A stretch of 32,000 nt of DNA from Candidatus Saccharimonadota bacterium (GTDB lineage Bacteria; Patescibacteriota; Gracilibacteria; BD1-5; UBA2023): assembly GCA_963706795.1 (NCBI GenBank), contig OY970170.1, positions 120,001 to 152,000 of the forward strand. Direction: 5' to 3'. The position numbers were made by a program, and so were the translations under genes. Under the pieces are notes generated by a model. It was not told where the DNA came from and searched no databases. It saw nothing but the letters and a program-made list of their open reading frames with translations. The first letter of the stretch is position 1, and each line of letters opens with the position of its first letter. This document shows, in pieces, positions 594 through 31,626 of the stretch.

Positions 594-601
<8 letters not shown>
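23..601 (-). CDS. GNAT family N-acetyltransferase (RimJ/RimL-like), 192 aa under table 25
   Basis: Track ORF 146..601 carries the acetyl-CoA motif QGRGYGSEA. It ends on TGA (146-148). Read as Gly, the frame continues (…EKNI-G-SRALAESFGGVEI…) through two more TGA codons to TAG at 23-25. The ATG (599-601) overlaps the leuS TAA by 8 nt (ATGCGTAA). Confidence 0.8.
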
Positions 602-3587
<2,986 letters not shown>

Positions 3588-3640
3588 ATTTGAAGGATGA
3601 GATTGTGGCGTATTTTAGAGAAAAGAAGCGCTTTGTCACG

Positions 3641-3674
3641 AAAAATCCCGCCTCTTGCGAGACGGGATTTGTTT
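3641..3674 (-). terminator. Rho-independent terminator downstream of the pilin-like gene
   Basis: Hairpin ATCCCGCCTC-TTGC-GAGACGGGAT (3645-3669), followed on the minus strand by a T-run. Confidence 0.6.
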
Positions 3675-3682
3675 GGGTTGAA

Positions 3683-4036
3683 TTACGCCTGAATGAGACG
3701 GAGAACAAACGAAACAATCGAGCTCGCGAGGAAGATCACGAGTAGACCCATAGCACCGTGCATGAGGATAGTCTTTCCCTTCTTTACCTTTTCTTCGTCA
3801 CCTCCTGAAGTGAGGATGAGGAAACCTCCGTAGAGAGCGTATGCTACAGCGATGAGGTAGAGGAGATTCGTAACAAAAGAGATGATGCTCTGAACACCAG
3901 TTTCGAGATTGTCAGAACGTCCTTTAAGACGCTCATCTACTTTTTCAACACCGGCATTGATACCCGCAGCGTATGTAGACTGAACGATTGTTGCAGCAGC
4001 CACTGAGCTGTAGGCGAGAGATTTCAGAGAGTTCAT
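3683..4036 (-). CDS. Small secreted two-TM protein, TrbC/VirB2-like (T4SS-type) pilin candidate
   Basis: 117 aa. It has a signal-peptide-like N-terminus (…VQSTYA/AG) and two hydrophobic helices (LLYLIAVAYALYGGFLIL and AMGLLVIFLASSIVSFVL) separated by a basic loop. It stops on TAA. The family call rests on architecture only. Confidence 0.5.
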   Translation of the reverse strand: MNSLKSLAYSSVAAATIVQSTYAAGINAGVEKVDERLKGRSDNLETGVQSIISFVTNLLYLIAVAYALYGGFLILTSGGDEEKVKKGKTILMHGAMGLLVIFLASSIVSFVLRLIQA

Positions 4037-4090
4037 AGGGTGAACTTAGGGTTAATGTGGCGCATTATAGTCAGCCCAAAAAGGAAAGTC

Positions 4091-4122
4091 AAAAAAAACA
4101 TCCTAAGTTTCTTAGGATGTTT
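4091..4122 (-). terminator. Rho-independent terminator of the rpsF-ssb-rpsR operon
   Basis: Hairpin AACATCCTAAG-TTTC-CTTAGGATGTT (4097-4122), with a T8 run on the minus strand (A-run 4091-4098). Confidence 0.7.
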
Positions 4123-4263
4123 GAGGAAAATCGCGTTTTTATAGCAGATCATCGGGTAAAAATTACCCAAAGAATGCCAGAATTTTTAGTTTATACGAGG
4201 CAGTGAGGTGCGCCGAATAGCGGAAGCTATTCAAGTATCTCACTAACGAAGTAGAAACAAAAA

Positions 4264-4488
4264 TTATGCAGCGTTCTTTTGCTTGAGATCGAGAACGTAT
4301 GGAAGAAGTGCCATGTAGCGAGCTCGCTTTACAGCCTGAGCAATCTTCTTTTGGTTCTTGAGAGTAGTTCCAGAGTAGTATCGTGGAGTAATCTTGTTGA
4401 ACTTAGTAATGAACTTCTTGAGAAGCTCTGTATCCTTGTAGTCGATGTGTTTGATTCCTTCAGCATCGATCGGGCACTGTTTTGACAT
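4264..4488 (-). CDS. rpsR: 30S ribosomal protein S18
   Basis: 74 aa. The sequence …[50 protein letters not shown] is typical of S18. It stops on TAA. Confidence 0.95.
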
Positions 4489-4499
4489 ATCGAATGATA

Positions 4500-4901
4500 T
4501 TAAAAGTTATCTGAGAGATCCGAAAAATCATCCGCAACTGATATTCATTCAGCTGCCATCTCGGCTTCTTCACGCTTTGAGAGGAAGATGAGCTCAGATG
4601 TGACGACTTCCGTTTTAAAAAATTTTGTACCGTCATCTCGGTCGAGTGAGCGAGATTTGAGGTGACCCTCAACGTATACGAGTTTTCATTTAGTGAGAAA
4701 CTGCTCAGCGCGATCAGCGATCACGCCCCAGGCTACACAGCTTGTAAACTCTGATTCAGAGTGAATTTCGCCGGCAGCGTTCTTAAAGGTATGGTTGGTT
4801 GCAACGGTGAAGAGGACAACCTTCTTGCCACCTTGTGTCGTCTTTACGAAAGGATCTTTCGTAACGTTTCCGATGAGGATTACCTTATTAATAGTTCTCA
4901 T
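4500..4901 (-). CDS. ssb: Single-stranded DNA-binding protein, 133 aa under table 25
   Basis: Track ORF 4686..4901 ([17 protein letters not shown]…) ends on TGA. Read-through gives …[33 protein letters not shown]… and an acidic tail [11 protein letters not shown]. It stops on TAA at 4500-4502. It sits between rpsF and rpsR, the conserved gene order. Confidence 0.9.
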
Positions 4902-5410: not shown

Positions 5411-6112
5411 CTATCCTTCGCGAACAAAACCCTTCGCGACATTGAACTGAGGATCGTCGTTATTGCCTGGACGATACGATACTTGGATGAAGTTATCCGA
5501 CGACAGTATAATACATGGTCTGTCAGAACGATCCATAAAGATGCCTTTGATGGGATTACAGATATCCCCTGCAGCATCTATTTGGATGCTTACATTTTGG
5601 AATTGCTCATAATTCAAAAAGATCATGAGCAGGGTTTCGTAGACGCCCCAGCGGAATTCGCCTGGTTGTTTTAAACCTTTTAGCTCACGAGCCGGGTAGG
5701 GGCTGAGTTTTGCTTCGATAAAATTCATATCGAATGGTTTACCTTGCAAGAACTTCCTGATTATCTCGGCCTTGTCGTCACTTTCAAAAAATGAACCTAC
5801 CATCGTATGATCGAGCTCATTGGATATATCAGTCCATTTTTTAGAGCGCTTCATAGTGTCAATAAGGACATTGACCGCCATGTGATACGTTGAAGCGAGC
5901 ATTCTCCATGGAAAATACAGGTAAAAGCCGTCGACATATTCAGGCGATGAATGCTTCGCATAGTTAATACCGTGCAGTAACTCGGTATTAAATGTGATCA
6001 GCCTTGCTTCGCGATACTCGTTTGGAAAAAATTCACGAACTCTTTCCATTTGAACCTCCAAAGGGGCTGGCATGTAGTTTTTGTTACTAATATCCGGAAT
6101 TTCTAAGGACAT
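5411..6112 (-). CDS. Hypothetical protein, 233 aa
   Basis: Uninterrupted ORF. A Shine-Dalgarno sequence AGGAGAAGAAAAT precedes the ATG, the stop is TAG, and a terminator follows. I recognise no motif. Confidence 0.65.
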   Translation of the reverse strand: MSLEIPDISNKNYMPAPLEVQMERVREFFPNEYREARLITFNTELLHGINYAKHSSPEYVDGFYLYFPWRMLASTYHMAVNVLIDTMKRSKKWTDISNELDHTMVGSFFESDDKAEIIRKFLQGKPFDMNFIEAKLSPYPARELKGLKQPGEFRWGVYETLLMIFLNYEQFQNVSIQIDAAGDICNPIKGIFMDRSDRPCIILSSDNFIQVSYRPGNNDDPQFNVAKGFVREG

Positions 6113-6261: not shown

Positions 6262-7533
6262 ATGGGTTTTGCAGACAGCTTTAAAAAATCGTCCTCGGCC
6301 AGCACAAACACCGACAGTCTCATGCAGACTGCCGGAGGTATTAGTGCCGCCGAAACTGAAATGGACGCAGTAAGCATGATTTTTGCAGATGCCATCCGTC
6401 TCGGAGGATCGGATATTCATATCGAACCGAACGAATCCGACATTTGCGTACGTATCCGAGTAGATGGACACTTCGTTGAGAGCACGCGACTTCCACTCGA
6501 GCAAAAGAGCTCTATTGTGGCACGTATCAAGATTTTGGCGAGCCTCAAGATCGATGAGCAGCGCCTCCCTCAAGATGGAAAGGCTTCATTTCGAGATGTT
6601 ACGACTGGCAAGGATGTAGACCTTCGCGTCAGCATCATGCCTAATATTTATGGCGAAAAAGTCGTAGTTCGAATCCTCAAAAAAGAGTCTTCCCTGCTCG
6701 ATCTCCGATCAGTTGGAATTCTCCCGATGAATATGGTTCGCATCCGTAAATATCTCGAGGGAAGTCACGGGCTCATTCTTGTCGTTGGACCCACTGGATC
6801 TGGAAAGTCGACAACGCTCTACAGCATGCTCTCGACCTATGATCCCGAGGACAACAATATCTCAACACTCGAAGATCCAGTCGAATACCGCATCCCTGGG
6901 GTTAATCACACTCAGATCTATCCAAATATCGGATTTAATTTTGCAGATGGACTCAGGTCACTTTTGCGACAGGATCCGGACATTATCATGGTCGGAGAAA
7001 TCCGCGACGGAGAGACTGCTCATCTCGCGATCGAGGCTTCGATTACGGGTCATCTCGTGTTTTCGACGATTCACGCGAATTCAACTGTGAATACGCTTCA
7101 GCGTTTAACCAATCTTGGGATTGATCCGCTGCTTTTGGTTTCTTCGCTCAAACTCGTCATCTCACAGCGTCTTGCTCGCAAACTCTGTCCACATTGCCGC
7201 ATCGCCTACGATCCAGAGCCTTCTACCAAAGAAAAGATCGTCTCTCGCATCGGCAAATATATGACCGAAAAGGAGAATTTTAAACTCTACAAACCCAATC
7301 CCGAAGGCTGCGAAAAATGTAAGCACAAAGGATATAAGGGTCGAGTCGGACTCTTTGAAATCCTCGAAATGACCGAAGGCCTCGAAAAACTCATCCTTGC
7401 AAAGGCTTCAAAAACACAACTCGAAGTCCAAGCGATCGGCGATGGCATGGTACATATCAAAGATGACGCCCTCATCAAGGTCGTACTTGGTGAAGTAAGT
7501 CTTGAGGAAATTTTGCAGGTCCTCTGAGGATAA
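6262..7533 (+). CDS. Type II/IV secretion (type IV pilus assembly) ATPase of the PilB/GspE family, short form
   Basis: GSDIHIEP, Walker A GPTGSGKSTT, an Asp box, Walker B IIMVGEIRD and a tetracysteine cluster (CPHC…CEKC). An in-frame TAG lies just upstream of the ATG. The track stop TGA (7525-7527) reads as Gly, so the protein ends …LQVLGG with TAA at 7531-7533. Confidence 0.88.
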
Positions 7534-20737: not shown

Positions 20738-21493
20738 ATGAAATCTCGCCTAATCGCGACAATATTTGCTGGCCTTGCTTTTGCTGGTTCGGCTCATGCA
20801 GAACGCGTGATCCTTAATCAGTCAAAACTCGCAGTAAGTAGTCCTTTCTGGCCATACTTACCACATTTTTGGGAATTTGATCCAACAGAAAATCCTCCAG
20901 TAAATGGTATTTCCAAGTATGCTTGTGGGCATGCTGCATTGAAAGTTGCTGCACAATATGTATCGGGGAAATCTATAACTATCCCCGAATTACACACATA
21001 CTTTTCCGCTAACTACCAAACTTATGCGCTAGATCAGCGATGTGGCCAAAATGATTGGCATAAGGGCTATTTCTGTGCAAATCTCTACGACATGGAGGCA
21101 GCAGCTAAGCGACAGCTTAATTTACCAAACAGTAAACTGCATCTGGAAAGTCCTCGTTATATTAATGGACTTCCTAATTATGCAGCCTTCCTACAAAAGG
21201 TGAAGGACGGTGTGCGGAATAATTTCCCTGTAATTACCAGCTCTGGCTGGCAGGGAAATATGTCCTGGGGACACATGTTTGTAATTGTGGGCTTCAACAC
21301 CGATAATACAAGTCGGCCTGAAGACGCATGGCTTTTTATACGCGATGTAAAGGATCAAACCGCCACTTCAAAAGAAATGGATGACTGGGTCACAGTAAAG
21401 GAATTTGTTGACGCCATGAAAGGTACTCAATTAGGCAGAACATACGATTGGCAACCAGAAAATGGTTTTCAATTCTTATTCGTTAAGCCATAA
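20738..21493 (+). CDS. Secreted papain-fold cysteine peptidase candidate (peptidase C39-like)
   Basis: Signal peptide MKSRLIATIFAGLAFAGSAHA/E. Candidate nucleophile in YACGHAALKVAAQY, and a candidate His in WGHMFVIVGFN followed by FIRD. It stops on TAA and a terminator follows. Confidence 0.55.
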   Translation: MKSRLIATIFAGLAFAGSAHAERVILNQSKLAVSSPFWPYLPHFWEFDPTENPPVNGISKYACGHAALKVAAQYVSGKSITIPELHTYFSANYQTYALDQRCGQNDWHKGYFCANLYDMEAAAKRQLNLPNSKLHLESPRYINGLPNYAAFLQKVKDGVRNNFPVITSSGWQGNMSWGHMFVIVGFNTDNTSRPEDAWLFIRDVKDQTATSKEMDDWVTVKEFVDAMKGTQLGRTYDWQPENGFQFLFVKP

Positions 21494-23275: not shown

Positions 23276-24250
23276 CTATACTCCCACCAACATTTCCATC
23301 ACTCACCTCTCTTTCTCCGCTATTTCCTTCAAAATTTCCGACGCCTGATAGATACATGCGATATCTTTCGTATTACTCACTTCCTCAAATAATCGAGCAA
23401 CTTCCATCCACAGAAGTGCGATTTGAGTAAATGCTTCATATCCAAGTCGGAGTTTCTCTCAGCCTATGAGCTCGTGAGATTCTTTTAGGAAATCTCGATA
23501 TAGATTCCTAAACAGCGCACCTCCCGTGCCTGCTCTTTCCATCAGCATGGCCGTGGTGCCAAAATCCTCTGCGACGTCCTGACTCTGTTTGAACCATTTT
23601 ATGATCTCTGTACTGGTTTTGAGGATTCCTTTGTAGCTGATATTCGTAATAGGTGGATTGAGATATTCTGCTGCATTGTCTCGGATTGCAGTGAGAATAG
23701 TGTCCTTTATATCGAATTCATAGCCAGTTTTCTTCAAAAAATAGTACATATTCTTTGAGGCCATGGGTCATGTTTCGGCACGAGCGAGGGCGAGACTGTG
23801 GAGTGATGTTTTTACCATTCAACCCTGTTGTTTTGTGTCTACCAAATATGCCGAATCTACATCGTAGCCATACATCGCAACATAATGTCCTGCGAAATGA
23901 ATCGGGTGAGAAAAATATTCCAAATGATAACAGTCCAGTTTGAGACCTACGATGTATCATTCATCTATTAGATTCTTCACATTTTCCCAGGCTTTTTTGG
24001 GTGATGAAGTCTCATGGGTAGATAGGTCCAATTTGAGACTCTGTGCGATATTCTGAGTGACGAGATCGGGCTTGATTCGTCCGCCAATGAATGGACGATC
24101 CATGCCTTTCATATTCCAAAATATATAACTCAGCCCCTTACCTAGTCCAAAAAGCATCGGTTCAGAAAGCGTGATCCCCAATGAGAGTAGGATCGTTCCT
24201 GTAGCAGTAGTCTCGCAGTGTTGTCACTCGAATGGCTGGATTTGGAGCAT
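23276..24250 (-). CDS. BtrH-N/DUF4872-like protein (papain-fold), 324 aa under table 25
   Basis: MLQIQPFEGQHCETTATGTILLSLGITLSEPMLFGLGKGLSYIF… and HFAGHYVAMYGYD fit the BtrH N-terminal pattern. Track ORFs 23957..24181 and 23459..23764 share a frame. It has 6 in-frame TGA codons and stops on TAG at 23276-23278. Confidence 0.65.
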
Positions 24251-24935: not shown

Positions 24936-24982
24936 AAAAAAAATCACCTGATCGTAATAGATCAGGTGATTTTATTTATTTT
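24936..24982. terminator. Bidirectional terminator between convergent genes
   Basis: 13-bp stem AAATCACCTGATC / GATCAGGTGATTT (24941-24972), flanked by an A-run and a T-run. Confidence 0.7.
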
Positions 24983-26438
24983 AAAATGTTCCTTTGAGTC
25001 CGACATTGTAGACTGGTCCGCTTGATTTTCAATCTATGCGATCCTGGCGAACTCCTGCAAATACATCAATACTAGGACCCTTCCACACTCCGAGTTTTTT
25101 GGTTACTTCGAGCCCCACTCGACTTGAGTCGCTTGGTCCAAGTGGACTCTTGCCAGTTGAGCGGATAATCTCAGTGTAGGCACTTGCGGACATGTTCATG
25201 TTTCGAAGTGTAGCCTGTGCTTTGGAAGTATTTGCGAGTGCAGATACTTCTCGACTTACTGCGAGATCAAATGCACTTCCCTTCTCATTATCCTTGTGGG
25301 TGATGCCACCATATACCGTGTTTGATCCATAGGTATTTGGTGTATCCGTGGCTCCACTTTGGAGATTTGGGACGATATTTCTTGTGTGGATAACTCCGGC
25401 ATGGACTGCAGTCTTGGGATCGAGTACATACTTTGCTTGTACATTTCAGGAGACTGCCACTTCTCCAACCTGTCCTTTCCTCAGACCATGAATACTGAGA
25501 TCGAGATGATCTGCTAGTTGTACTTTTGCCTTAGTAGTCAATCCTGTCTCGATAGAGAAAGTATCGTTCACTGGCCATATCTTTGAGACTCCTGCCTGAG
25601 CTGCCGCTGCGTAGTAATCCCGACTCACATCTTTCTCTGAACCAATGCGCGTTTTTGAGACATTTATTTCACCAAAACCACGCAGGAGTTCATTACCTGA
25701 TTCGTATCCGAGGGTTGTATGAATCGTCTGAAGTTTGAGTCCTGCGATCTCATTTTCCTTGTATCCGATGCCTGCATATGTACCACCGATGTGCTTGTTA
25801 AGTGCAATTCGTTTCCCACGATTGGTGAGTTCAAATTCTACACCTTCTGGCATGTTTGATGGTTTTTTGAGCCAAGATTCTACATCGCGCATCGTGAACA
25901 TTTGTGCATTTACCTCGCGGTTGAGCGGAGTCTGGATTGCACCGATGATATCCCCTTTGTCGTTAGCGAGATAGTTGGTGAAGACATAGTTCTTGTTTTT
26001 TACTGCGTAGGTATCGAGGGCTTCTTCGATATTTCTCCCTGTATAAAGTACTCAATAGTCGGAGAATACAGTCTTATCTGCTACCTTCATAACAGTAATC
26101 GCATGTCCTAAATCCTGACCACCCACCGTTACAACTCCTGCGTCAATTCCCCATGCATTTGCCACTTGGGCAACCGTCGCATGGATACCAGTACAGACAC
26201 TCAGTGGAAGAGATTGTTCGCTGTAAGTGGCTTGTGCAAGATTGGAGAACTGTTTACCGAGTGTGGGAACTGGGAGAGGCTTCCCTGTTTGTGCTGTTTC
26301 TTGGTTGTAAGTAAACTTCAGGAGTTCACTTCCTAAAATATCAAGGAAAATGATCTTCTCTTCTTTTGAAAGTGTAGATCAGATGCGTACGAGATTGTCG
26401 CGGACGTATTTCTCATTTGATGTGACAGAAACCTGCAT
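24981..26438 (-). CDS. Transglutaminase-like Cys-His-Asp domain fused to a beta-strand-rich C-terminal region ending …VYNVGLKGTF, about 485 aa
   Basis: One frame is open from 26516 to TAA 24981-24983, with 4 in-frame TGA codons downstream of the chosen start (a fifth lies between the two start candidates), and it contains track ORF 25446..25901. Candidate triad: SVCTGIHATVAQVANAWGID, GHAITVMKV and FSDYG. The last ~330 aa have alternating hydrophobic residues and a terminal Phe. The start is ATG 26436-26438 or 26481-26483. Confidence 0.55.
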
Positions 26439-27459
26439 CAGAGGGAAGCGATGTAATAGCAAGGAGATTTTCTCCGTATGCATTCTGTGCTTTAATTGTA
26501 TGACTGCGCACTTTTTCTATATCGTACTTTTCATGGAAAATATCTCAAAAAGCGACCATATTTCATCTTAATTGATCCTCAATAGATCATTTAAGAAAGG
26601 TGAAACGATTTCTGAGCGCTTCCTCACTTTGTCCAACACTCCTATTAAGAGCAGATTCGGCTATAGCCTTTAAGCTATAGAGTCCATCTCTGCCAGACAA
26701 CTTAGTCTTTGCATCATTTTGCTTCTTGCTTATATCTGCAAGCTCAGCACTGTGGTCATTAATATATTTTCTTTCTGCATTGAGTGCCTTTATGAGCTCC
26801 TGGATCTTTGGATCATTGCTCTTTACAAAATACTGATCAGAGTCAGCATTAAATCCAATAAGATCTCCATTAGCGGCGGCAATATAGTCTGTCGATAAAT
26901 CATGTCCTGTTTTTGCCTTGTAAGAATCTATAATCGCCGAATATCCGTCTTGAAGAATCTTTCATTGTTTGTTCGTGACTTCAATAATAGCCTCAAGTGG
27001 CACAATGTCATTTGTTATTTTTTTAAGCGCTTCGATACTTGCAGTTTTATCCACAAGAGCAGCACTAAGTCTGCGCTCACCTCATGCAAAGTCTGGAGCA
27101 AAAGCACTCGCATATTCAGTGCCTCCAAGAGTTGGTAGATTACTTTTGGATTGATAACCAAATTTCATACTCACCGGAAAGGCGGGATCTTTGCTTGCCG
27201 CCTTAATAATATCTGCCCGAGCCTTCAGACTTTCTTGGGTCATATCAAGACGAGCTGCAGACGTATCAGCAAGGCTATCGAGTGAAACTTTCGTATCTTT
27301 CTCGCCCTTCTTTTCTGGAGCAGGCGGCAGATCTAAAGGATCAGGAATATCAAATCCACTATATGGATCAGTATCGTATGATGGAAGTTCGAGGGTCATA
27401 AACAAAGAATGTGAACTAATGTGTACTGATTTTCTGCAGAACTGCGACGTGTCACTCAT
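26254..27459 (-). CDS. Hypothetical protein, about 400 aa; its 3' end overlaps the next gene in the +1 frame
   Basis: Track ORF 27082..27522 continues through 6 TGA codons with no TAA or TAG until 26254-26256. Start candidates are ATG 27457-27459 (MSDTSQF…) and ATG 27397-27399 (MTLELPSYD…). The last ~55 codons look non-protein-like. Confidence 0.5.
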
Positions 27460-27816: not shown

Positions 27817-28107
27817 ATGAAGAGATTTGCCACTCTATTGCTCATAGCAATATCATTTTTTTGAAGCGCGTCCTTTGTCCAAGCAAAGACTTATTATACG
27901 GGCCCTAAAGGTGGATGTTACTCGTATTCTTCCTCAGGTAAGAAGGTTTATGTCTCGCACCAATACTGCTCTCGCAATGACGAAGGATCGAATGCAGTCT
28001 ACAATAGCAACACAAACAAGACCTATTACACAGGTCCAAAAAACGGATGCTTCTACTACGGAGCAAGCTTAAAGAAAATATATGTCTCACATACGTACTG
28101 TAACTAG
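27817..28107 (+). CDS. Secreted miniprotein with two Cys-containing repeats, 96 aa under table 25
   Basis: Signal peptide MKRFATLLLIAISFF-G(TGA)-SASFVQA/K. It is followed by two copies of YYTGPK(G/N)GC(Y/F)xY…KK(V/I)YVSHxYC. It stops on TAG at 28105-28107. It is not in the standard-code track. Confidence 0.6.
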
Positions 28108-28494: not shown

Positions 28495-31400
28495 CTAATT
28501 AAACCATCTTTTTGGTTTTGGATGAGCCTCAACTTGCTTCTGTAGAAGCTCGACTGCCTCAATGCCTTTCTCCATCTCGGCGACACTCTTGAGGCCAACG
28601 GGTGATTTTTTATCTACGATCTGTGCAAGTTTTGCGCGGACATCACGAACTACGGCAATTTCTTGTTTTCCTTCTGATCATTTATCCCCAAAGATGGCAT
28701 TCAGTTGAAATACATCATTATTCCATTTAGTATCCCACTTTGTTTCATTACCCGAAATGATTGCATCAAACTGCCTCTGGATTTTTGCAGGACTGAGATT
28801 GGCGAGTTTTTCCATAAAAATTGGATCGTTCTCGTGGGCATATTGGTACGAAAAATACGCAAGCGCGTCAATCATGGCATACGCTCATCGAAGCTCGTCG
28901 AATCTTGCGCGAATATCAGAACCTGACTCACTCAGACGAGTCTTTATATAAGCAGCTCAGCTTTTGCGAATGTCGAGGTATTGATTATTAACGTAAGCTA
29001 AGAGTTTTTGCTTTGCGATATCACCCTCAGGAGTGCTAAATGGCGCCATTTTTCTTCTGACAACATTGTCAGTAATAGCTGCTCTGCAAGGACCATAGTC
29101 TGCGCCATGACTCATGCCAATGCTCAACCCAAGGGAATCTTCAAAACAAGTATACGTAGTTACATACTCAAAGTTATCGCCATTACCGCCAGGATCTCGA
29201 TATCTTCATCCTCAGCCTGACCTTCATCTGACTATACGTGTTTTTTCAGTAATTCGAACCGAGAGGGTTCAATCGAATTTCAGGCTTGGTACTATAAATT
29301 GTGCTTTGGTATCAAAGGATTTATATACTAAATCTTTTTTAGCAAAGACCTTGATAATCCCTCGGTTTAAATCATCAGATGAACTGCTGACCACTTCTTC
29401 TTTTTTGCTGATAATCCAGTTTTTCAGCCCAGCATTTACAACATCTTCTTCTTTGTCGCTGGTGAGAAGAGGTTTTTGGAGACTGATCCCCACCATGGCA
29501 GCATCATGGGGCTGAGAAGCAGATAACAGAGATATTTCTTTTGTTTTCTGTTCTTCAAACTTACGAAGCTCTCGGTCGAGTTCTTCTAAAAATTTCTGAC
29601 GTTTTGTCTCATAGAGTTTGAGACTGAGATCAAAGAGAGAATTCTCGCGAATATCTGCGAGGCGAGCACTTTCGTCTTGGAGTGCTTGGAGTGTAGATTT
29701 GATATTGCGAATATTCACCTTATCAACCTCAGTAATACCGTGTGTACCGAGAAGTACGAGGTATTTATCCATAATCATTTTCATGATTTCTGGATTGACG
29801 AGCGACTCGCCTGAAGTCACGGGTGTCTCAAAATCGAGAATACCCCTCGAGGTGATATTTCGAACCATATTGATCGAGCCTTCCATTCCGCGATTTTGGA
29901 GTTCATTTGCAAAATCACGCAAGGCTGACTTCCTTGCTCTTCCTGTAAAATTATAGTTCGCCGCGTAGCTCGTTGCTAGATTGACGAGCCCTGATTTGCA
30001 AGAGACAAGATTACTCGTGTCATACCCATTTTTAGTCCAAGTTGTAGCCTGTGTATAGCAGCCTTGCAGTATACCGCCGTGAGTATTTCTAAAGAGGTCT
30101 TCTTGTATAATCATTTGATTATCCTGCAAATGACCGAGTGCGGCTGCGATTTGATCGAGACGATTCTTAATATCTGTTACATCACCCTGGATTTGGTCCA
30201 ATCTATCTAATACAATATCGAGTTTTTTATCTACACGATCAAAGCGCTCATGCATCTCTTTTTTAAGTTCGGAGATTTGTTTAGAGAGCTTTTCAAGCGC
30301 AGCCATTATTTGCTTATGCCTCTCTCCAGCAGGATCAGGTTTTTTAGCAAAGAGTCCTACGAGATTTACAGCCGCGCTCACCATGTTCCCTGTTGCAATT
30401 GAGCCAGCCATATCGCCTAATTTAAGCAGACTAATCGTCTCCATGACATTGACGAGATTGTCTGCGATGACCACTGCAGTTCAGATATCTCTTGCAGTCT
30501 CCGAATTCCCAAAAAGCTGTCCAAGACCCCGTGCTATATTCAAATAGTTACGAGTCTCTTGGTAAACTTCTTTAATCTGCTGCTTTTGAAGCATGAATGC
30601 CGCAGCAATAGCAGCTTCTTTTGCTTTAATGAGCACTTCTTGTTCAGCCTTTGCCTGTACATTTGTGAGCGTTTTGAGACCTTCGCGCATCACTTTTGCC
30701 TGAGCAACTAAATCAGCAAGCGTTTGAGCTTGGTTTTTGAGCGCATCTGTATTTTTACCAATCTTTTCCTGCATTTTCTTATTTACTTCATACAGACCAT
30801 CAGCCTTGTTGAGCAATAAGACAGTTGCTGGGTCCATGAAGCTCTTGTAATCAACCTTGGTGATATCTTTATCAATGAGCTGCTTTGTGAGAGCGCCAAG
30901 TAATTTTTGCTGATCTTTAGAAAGTCTCTCAGGATGATTGATGAGCTCTTGAATAAGTGGCTTTCCGATGTTTTCTGCAAATTTCTGGAACTTAAAATTT
31001 GCCTCCTGGCGAAGCATGTCTTCATCAATTTGAGCGTCTGTTTGCAGCTCTGCGAAAGATGATCAAACCGGAGAGAATGTTGTACTATTAGAGGCAAGCA
31101 CGATGGCCTCTTTTATAACCGACGTATATCCTATCATTTTACCAATAATCGACTCCGCGAGAGGAAATGCCTGATTCGCCAATATCGCCTTAGAGACCAT
31201 CTCTGCTGTATAACTCTGTGGGAGATGAGAGATCACTTTTGCAATATCTCTATCAGATATTTTTTGGCCATCACTTCTTGCCACCATCTTAATATTACTG
31301 TCAGTTTTGAGCAGTGCGAAAACAAACTGCTCCATCTTTCAGCTATCGAGCAGGGCTTTATTCACGTAGTCAGCAGTAAGCTGTTTTTCCATTATTTGAC

Positions 31401-31626
31401 GCTTCTCTATCTCGCTCGCATTCGCAATCGAAGGACTCGTCACCACTGGAGTTGCCAGTGTTGGCTGCGACTCCGCTGGCGATGCAAATGTGAGTGCTGC
31501 AGCAACTACCGCCCCCTGAATAGCGCTCGAAATAGATTTTCCTTCTCTATTTTTTGATGTGGGTACAAAAAAATCCCTCACCCCAAGGTTGTTCTGCATA
31601 ATTCCAAAGATGAAAAAATACTTCAC
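28495..31626 (-). CDS. Giant coiled-coil-rich protein of unknown function, about 1043 aa under table 25
   Basis: Track ORFs 31339..31626, 31063..31335, 30481..31017, 29269..30474 and 28678..28875 all share one frame. I translated every linker: they contain only TGA codons and no TAA or TAG. The stop is TAG at 28495-28497. The start is GTG 31626 or ATG 31599. The N-terminus has a hydrophobic stretch, AIQGAVVAAALTFASPA. Confidence 0.7.

Follow-up and report, generated by a model that had tools for sequence, protein, structure and literature searches.

Transglut_core (PF01841) proteins are thiol enzymes, to which LapG/C93 and TgpA are related; type Vd autotransporters (PlpD/FplA) possess a 16-stranded barrel, and single-chain beta-barrels with a last strand of the beta-barrel assembly machinery (BAM) type are regarded as a signature of the outer membrane. 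Barrels working in the membrane of another cell have also been described: PopA of Bdellovibrio (prey inner membrane) and PorB of Neisseria (mitochondria) (PMC12228718). The DNA analysed here (32,000 nucleotides, contig OY970170.1, positions 120,001–152,000 of the forward strand; hereafter the window) carries a gene at 24981–27399 of its minus strand, in the product of which an N-terminal helical region, a thiol-enzyme head and a C-terminal beta-barrel are very probably joined. Head and barrel are both of known kinds by their fold; the surprise is that the family is concentrated in lineages without an outer membrane.

The gene and its three modules

Gene boundaries: All features of the gene lie on the minus strand. 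In an earlier note on this DNA the gene was placed at 24981–26438; this open reading frame (ORF) is continuous over 485 codons with TGA read as sense, contains four in-frame TGAs, and is broken into short ORFs and fragments when the region is translated with table 11. Two homologues were found in a database of 5.8 billion proteins, P0001 (808 aa; E = 1e-103, 43% identity) and P0002 (812 aa; E = 3e-49), and because of these matches the ORF is taken as a real gene and not a chance one. The N-terminal halves of P0001 and P0002 were aligned to a second window ORF, 27399–26434, in another frame; the two frames, joined by skipping base 26433, gave an 805-aa protein that can be aligned with both homologues over the full length (codon-to-residue mapping of the joined translation was checked residue by residue). 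On this alignment the ORF first reported is the C-terminal 60% of a gene 24981–27399 of ~805 codons plus TAA stop, to be read with code 25 and containing nine in-frame TGAs; the boundaries given before were therefore too narrow and the gene, as assembled, is frameshifted.

Frameshift site: Three-frame translation and alignment placed the shift (1 nt) at 26420–26437, where homology moves from the frame of ...AITSLPSDA to that of VSVTSNEKY...; one surplus G at 26433 is the simplest explanation of the sequence. The ATG at 26436–26438, taken as the start in the earlier note, falls inside the site. Programmed frameshifting was considered and rejected; the shift site contains no stop codon, and since another 59 codons of the old frame are open a simple 1-nt indel is preferred. 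No second assembly of the locus was found by exact-protein look-up and DNA pattern scans of two large collections. Faulty assembly could account for the shift; alternatively the mutation is real and the window copy possibly inactive. In the latter case the locus would be a pseudogene or a split gene, giving an N-terminal fragment at most and perhaps a 485-aa head-plus-barrel protein reinitiated at ATG 26438; this alternative, independent of all readings of function, is judged rather unlikely. In its favour, the change of frame is seen relative to two full-length homologues, the ATG stands exactly at the junction, and shorter members without the N-terminal region exist (P0008, 399 aa; P0010, 412 aa); against it, neither half contains a TAA or TAG (322 and 483 codons) and both are homologous to full-length relatives throughout, a pattern to be expected if one base was wrongly assembled or if the mutation is very recent. 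Short GG and TTT runs are present at the site.

Beta-barrel (24990–25844; aa 519–803, strands S1–S16): The module was delimited by AlphaFold2, Foldseek and family-averaged alternation. Residues 348–808 of P0001 were modelled by AlphaFold2 from an alignment of 35 family sequences; the model (predicted local distance difference test, pLDDT, 91.4; predicted TM-score 0.88; five models 89–91; barrel strands mostly pLDDT >90) contains 16 long antiparallel DSSP strands of 6–18 residues each, reaching the C-terminus, with turns of 2–6 residues on the terminus side, loops of up to 14, 8 and 8 residues on the opposite side and a linker of ~7 residues between the last head helix and strand 1. The barrel-like C-terminus proposed in the earlier note was thus borne out by the structure prediction that the note had called for. 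Foldseek gave 114 PDB matches at E ≤ 1e-3, the best 50 of which are all outer-membrane barrels, with no soluble fold among them; the barrels matched were BtuB, OprC, OmpC, BamA, LptD, TamA, CdiB, FapF, OmpG and TodX (probability 1.00, TM-scores 0.2–0.5 to known outer-membrane barrels; CdiB, root-mean-square deviation 5.4 Å over 335 columns; OmpG, TM 0.51). The best BFVD matches (E ≤ 1e-3) were likewise outer-membrane-type barrels: DUF481, autotransporter beta-domains and porins. Averaged over the family, one face of the strands is 0.56 hydrophobic (0.7–0.9 at many positions) and the other 0.21, with many charged residues. Since 16 strands make a barrel too wide to be filled by a packed core, the hydrophobic face most plausibly points outward; barrel closure we infer from fold matches and geometry, not from coordinates.

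Last strand (VYNVGLKGTF, 24984–25013): The strand carries a C-terminal signature of the outer-membrane-protein (OMP) type, i.e., terminal Phe with hydrophobic residues at positions 5, 7 and 9 from the end, and the pattern described before holds with Phe counted as position 1. Terminal Phe is found in 15 of 25 full-length members; among these 15, hydrophobic residues occupy positions 1/3/5/7/9 in 15/8/12/14/12 and positions 2/4/6/8 in 0/5/3/0 sequences. All peptides previously quoted from the ORF (SVCTGIHATVAQVANAWGIDAGVV, GHAITVMKV, TVFSDYG, YAGIGYKE, GLKLQTIHTTLGYE, FSIETGLTTKAKVQL, GEVAVSGNVQAKYVL, GLEVTKKLGVW and ...PVYNVGLKGTF) are present in it, and the C-terminal region is rich in Gly, Ser and Thr as had been stated (G 11.5%, S 8.4%, T 8.0%); the aromatic content of the window protein is low (F+Y+W 6.3%). 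Membership in Omp85 through the loop-6 motif RG(Y/F) was considered and rejected, LRGF of the window protein being conserved neither in P0001 nor in P0002.

The module resembles BAM-dependent barrels (porins, OmpG, TodX/FadL, TonB-dependent transporters) in fold, alternation, short terminus-side turns and terminal Phe; it differs from them in having no sequence similarity, in the low TM-scores, in its occurrence in the candidate phyla radiation (CPR) and a DPANN archaeon, and in the internal position of the barrel in giant homologues. It might instead be no membrane protein at all, that is, a secreted or wall-associated all-beta domain (adhesin, carbohydrate-binding barrel) in which AlphaFold and Foldseek were misled by strand periodicity. 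Such a domain would suit a producer without an outer membrane, the modest hydrophobic face of several strands of the window protein with its few aromatic residues, and the low TM-scores to real OMPs. Sixteen long strands, however, cannot enclose a packed hydrophobic core, yet one face is strongly hydrophobic and the other charged; with the uniform membrane-barrel character of the best 50 PDB matches, the OMP-like C-terminal strand pattern and the agreement of the five models, this makes the non-membrane alternative very unlikely.

Head domain (25866–26381; aa 340–511): The domain consists of a helical bundle, a Cys-helix, a 4-strand sheet and a conserved hairpin with a NYL-D-G-I-G-TPL motif; its boundaries were set by mapping AlphaFold2 elements H6-54, H63-76, E81-115 and 118-172 of the P0001 model onto the window protein. 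Cys402 (TGT, 26193–26195), the putative nucleophile, is the first residue of a helix; His432 (CAT, 26103–26105) is the putative general base and corresponds to model strand E92-100; Asp447 (GAC, 26058–26060), the third residue of the putative triad, is followed by Tyr and TGA-encoded Gly449. The three residues thus stand in mid-protein and not, as had been written, in its N-terminal third. Their conservation, on which the earlier note had staked its proposal, was found in the 17 triad-bearing members, standard-code organisms included: Cys and His are invariant (17/17) and Asp or Asn occurs in 16/17. In the P0001 model Cys is residue 63 and starts helix 63–76, His93 lies in strand 92–100 and Asp108 ends strand 103–108. 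The topology, read from predicted secondary structure of this model and not from coordinates, is of the papain/transglutaminase kind because Cys stands at the helix start and His and Asp on the next strands.

No Pfam family matched the 485-aa ORF even at E ≤ 10, and none matched the 805-aa protein, so that the Transglut_core profile check suggested before came out negative; among family members a Transglut_core match was seen in 1 of 35 (E = 0.012) and in none of the ten with the standard code. The core-region profile run against all PDB sequences gave a sole match below E 0.1, 4xz7 (E 0.026; 0.024 with a tighter profile), in which family Cys, His and Asp are in register with Cys (AMCVGF motif), His and Asp of 4xz7 (hhalign 82%). 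4XZ7 is a transglutaminase of Streptococcus suis, classed in Transglut_core (PMC10318531), and Cys-302 is the catalytic residue of that enzyme (PMC5612097). The likeness to transglutaminases (4XZ7) comprises the order Cys...His...Asp (family spacing 30 and 15 residues), Cys at a helix N-terminus with His and Asp on following antiparallel strands, and an aligned G-x-C...G-I-x-A...V...G-H...D context. Unlike Transglut_core, the family has no Pfam or NCBIfam match and only marginal similarity at the profile level, an extra conserved TPL-motif hairpin after the core, a fused barrel and many paralogues without the triad. Of the transglutaminase-like core claimed earlier, the invariant Cys and His and the predicted topology stand, with a marginal alignment to 4xz7; a Pfam Transglut_core assignment does not. 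The head is predicted to be a very divergent transglutaminase/papain-like thiol enzyme, the evidence being coherent and below family thresholds.

N-terminal region (26382–27399; aa 1–339): The region, delimited by alignment, starts with MTLELP, has no Sec signal and is common only to P0001, P0002, P0004 and fragments; it is predicted to be mostly alpha-helical (low-confidence 2-sequence AlphaFold model, pLDDT 33) and gave no Pfam or PDB match.

The family and its paralogues

Search and distribution: An exhaustive HMMER search of 1.84 billion cluster representatives yielded 39 relatives at E ≤ 1e-3; word-indexed search had found few members even with a 26-sequence profile, and it was the exhaustive search that opened the family. 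All relatives come from metagenomes or metagenome-assembled genomes (MAGs). Neither the ORF, nor the full protein, nor the homologues received a Pfam or NCBIfam assignment, and a full-length profile gave TcdA as best match among PDB sequences (E 0.42, noise). When 185,579 species-representative genomes, JGI metagenome contigs and IMG/VR were scanned with the family alignment, no relatives came up (the window's own genome is absent from these collections as well); tblastn against phages and plasmids was empty too, and a mobile-element origin was rejected on that result. Most members are Trp-rich, their TGA codons having been called as Trp, and for this reason most of the family is assigned to recoded lineages. 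Source labels are Peregrinibacteria for P0025, Woesearchaeota for P0043 and "Deltaproteobacteria bacterium" MAG for P0015 (1,562 aa); P0040 is encoded on a 29-kb archaeal contig with Topo VI subunit A, and a close relative bears the Woesearchaeota label. Members of this undescribed family belong mostly to TGA-recoded CPR and to Peregrinibacteria; the outliers are from Woesearchaeota and from a deltaproteobacterial MAG.

Paralogues: Two subfamilies were distinguished, the 17 triad-bearing members forming one; at least 11 recoded paralogues lack the Cys and read "ADG" where the others have "GH", with the downstream hairpin, the TPL motif and the barrel kept. From their sequences these triad-less paralogues look like pseudo-enzymes. 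In loci L001–L003 a degenerate paralogue ending ...GFSGAF lies directly upstream of triad-intact P0002; in L001 the two (1–1881, triad-less, ≥626 aa; 2135–4573, P0002) form a same-strand tandem pair, followed by a convergent gyrB. The window contains one family member.

Giant members: In P0015 (L007, 8001–12689), P0019 and P0029, from high-GC MAGs, the head and most of the barrel lie in the middle of proteins of 1,364–1,838 aa; none of the three has a signal peptide, and P0015 adjoins a >2,400-aa Calx-beta protein and a sulfotransferase.

Genetic code and genomic setting

Code 25 is known from Gracilibacteria and Absconditabacteria. The GC content of the window is 43%, and long ORFs appear in it only with TGA as a sense codon. 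The TGA of the Obg gene falls on the invariant Gly of motif G-D-G-G-x-G in three of three solved Obg structures, that of the leucyl-tRNA synthetase (LeuRS) gene aligns to Gly in 6q89, and TGA449 of the present gene (26052–26054) corresponds to Gly of the conserved DYG motif, Gly being found there in standard-code homologues. By these alignments TGA is shown to stand for Gly (code 25) in the window, as the earlier note had assumed; no tRNA-Gly(UCA) was found in the 32 kb.

With nine in-frame TGAs, the gene is therefore native to a recoded genome. Its origin by contamination or by recent transfer from an ordinary Gram-negative bacterium, suggested by the fact that OMP-type barrels are typical of diderms and that one branch of the family is labelled Deltaproteobacteria, is effectively refuted by codon usage: one of the nine TGAs falls on a conserved Gly, the closest relatives are TGA-recoded (W-rich code-4 calls), the flanking genes also contain in-frame TGAs, and the species-representative genomes, plasmids, phages and IMG/VR hold no relatives.

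Other content of the window is typical of CPR: a VirB2-type pilin of a type IV secretion system, a PilB-type ATPase, S18, LeuRS, the methionyl-tRNA synthetase MetRS, and Obg; no outer-membrane-related genes were recognised in the 32 kb by protein-domain content.

Gene ends: A terminator-like site (24940–24973; a 14-bp hairpin between an A-run and a T-run, found by terminator scan and in the sequence) is bidirectional and lies directly after the stop codon, between convergent genes. An operon with the upstream 1,034-aa gene was rejected, plus-strand ORFs being present between the two.

Neighbouring genes: 20738–21493 (plus strand) encodes a secreted papain-like protein with weak Peptidase_C70 (AvrRpt2-like) and C39_2 matches, and 23276–24250 (minus strand) a papain-like BtrH_N + DUF4872 protein (E 1e-39 and 1e-45); with these two further papain-like proteins at most 4 kb from the gene, thiol-peptidase folds are unusually frequent around it. 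The ORF 27817–28107 (plus), which lies a short way upstream of the gene on the other strand, encodes a secreted 96-aa protein with a signal peptide, two Cys-containing repeats (YYTGPKGGCY... / YYTGPKNGCF...) and a PBCV basic adaptor domain (PF08789, 29 bits). The 1,034-aa protein of 28495–31599 (minus strand; ten in-frame TGAs) has a signal-peptide-like N-terminus and long coiled-coil stretches; its sole Pfam match is a weak DUF1664, it shows no similarity to the barrel family, and it may belong to the giant surface proteins that these bacteria typically have. In the LeuRS gene (594–3587, minus strand) a NUDIX insert (PF00293, 38 bits vs cutoff 21; residues 400–506, ~2070–2390) directly follows an editing domain matched over profile positions 1–141 of 185 only; the insert holds two of the three in-frame TGAs of this gene.

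Export, envelope and proposed function

Producer envelope: Cryogenic transmission electron microscopy (cryo-TEM) of CPR cells attached to Gram-negative hosts showed an S-layer and no outer membrane (bioRxiv 10.1101/2020.05.14.094862); general descriptions of Patescibacteria likewise give them no outer membrane (PMC12102498; PMC8871954), in agreement with the earlier note. Vampirococcus (Absconditabacteria) is an epibiotic predator of Gram-negative Chromatiaceae (PMC8080830). Cultivated DPANN archaea have archaeal hosts without outer membranes (PMC11291902).

Export signals: Judged by eye, signal peptides occur only in P0037, P0039, P0040, P0041 and P0043; the window protein starts with MTLELPSYDTDPYSGF and has none. 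A start of the form M-x(0-4)-[LIV]-P (MTLELP, MDSLP, MWDALP, MSLEIP...) is found in 9 of 27 full-length members vs ~4% by chance, namely in the window gene (27382–27399), P0009, P0011, P0014, P0017, P0022, P0027, P0031 and P0033; all are TGA-recoded and none has a Sec signal. As far as the sequences allow a suggestion, this start could be a tag for non-Sec export or for processing. A 233-aa window protein (5411–6112, minus strand) starts with MSLEIPDIS, eight residues being identical to the N-terminus of P0017; a relation of this protein to the family was rejected, only these first eight residues being shared with P0017. Candidate machinery for non-Sec export or contact lies within the 32 kb: a VirB2/TrbC-type type IV secretion pilin (3683–4036, minus strand; PF18895, E 2e-10) and a PilB/GspE-type ATPase (6262–7533, plus strand; T2SSE, E 5e-117).

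Own envelope or foreign membrane: Peregrini-, Gracili- and Absconditabacteria might possess an unrecognised outer lipid layer, or house the barrel in some other way, and the protein would then be a resident porin or an autotransporter-like display with its head facing the producer's own wall. The barrel shows every hallmark of a resident OMP (16 strands, short terminus-side turns, terminal-Phe strand, alternation), the family has expanded and spread vertically inside a single CPR clade, and an enzyme N-terminal to a C-terminal barrel ending in an aromatic residue recalls type V secretion; 16 is also the strand number of type Vd and TpsB/Omp85 proteins, and CdiB, TamA and BamA are among the structural matches. 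Unlike type V systems, the CPR members have no Sec signal peptide, no member (0/35) has a POTRA or an autotransporter/Omp85 Pfam domain (Bac_surface_Ag included), the ~7-residue linker leaves no room for a long pore-spanning helix, and the producers are thought to lack both an outer membrane and BAM. Cryo-TEM and comparative genomics (bioRxiv 10.1101/2020.05.14.094862; PMC12102498; PMC8871954), as well as the lack of outer-membrane-related content in the window, speak in the same direction, and residence in the producer's own envelope is considered unlikely.

Proposed mechanism: The three-module protein is tentatively read as an envelope-targeting effector, the barrel of which sits in a membrane that the producer lacks, probably the outer membrane of a host; architecture and mechanism taken jointly, we hold this to be a serious possibility that falls short of being probable. 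That the barrel targets a host membrane is, taken for itself, a somewhat doubtful proposition. PopA and PorB are conceptual precedents, i.e., barrels of a predator and a pathogen functioning in the membrane of the victim; their producers are diderms that assemble the barrel with their own BAM first, and the two proteins have no enzyme head and no homology to the family. The producers would live as epibionts or predators and have no outer membrane themselves, and for this reason the barrel would most plausibly end in that of a Gram-negative host. After non-Sec export, the barrel would insert into the host outer membrane where the cells are in contact, either from outside or via the host BAM machinery; insertion through host BAM is proposed as the explanation of the conserved BAM-type last strand. 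The embedded barrel would be an anchor, possibly a water-filled pore, and the thiol enzyme, held on the short-turn face, could act on amide bonds of peptidoglycan or envelope proteins by cleavage or cross-linking. For the triad-less paralogues (L001 has one in tandem with an intact copy), a role as pore or non-catalytic partner is proposed. The fully specified version, in which a single-membrane CPR epibiont exports a ready-made OMP into a Gram-negative host, host BAM or self-insertion places the barrel, the resulting pore or anchor positions the thiol enzyme and triad-less partners form pores, is by itself unlikely.

Several points weigh against the effector reading. No CPR member has a Sec signal peptide; the archaeal hosts of DPANN do not fit a story of host outer membranes for the Woesearchaeota members; the barrel is internal in the deltaproteobacterial-type members of 1,364–1,838 aa, unlike that of a BAM substrate, and the archaeal members, too, hardly look like substrates of BAM. 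The predicted structure is that of a homologue (43% identity in the part modelled) and not of the window protein; the P0001 sequence carries TGA-as-Trp miscalls, closure and orientation of the hydrophobic face are deduced, and this face stands out less in the window sequence by itself than on averaging over the family. The transglutaminase assignment lies below threshold (nothing in Pfam; one weak match in 35 members), and the window copy carries a frameshift. Only 32 kb of the genome are covered, so BamA or an outer membrane may be encoded elsewhere in the organism.

Meaning: CPR bacteria, in images of which no outer membrane was seen, possess an expanded and unannotated family of well-supported barrels joined to a thiol-enzyme head; a DPANN archaeal MAG has the family as well. 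The episymbionts concerned make up a large share of bacterial diversity. If the barrels are housed in an unrecognised layer of the producers' own envelope, the family bears on the monoderm/diderm debate; if they are delivered to hosts, it offers a testable molecular mechanism for episymbiont attachment and feeding, and Cys402, the terminal Phe and the pairs of intact and degenerate paralogues provide targets for co-culture work. A host-inserted barrel would, if true, be a new class of inter-bacterial effector and would give a handle on how CPR and DPANN episymbionts breach their hosts and feed on them.

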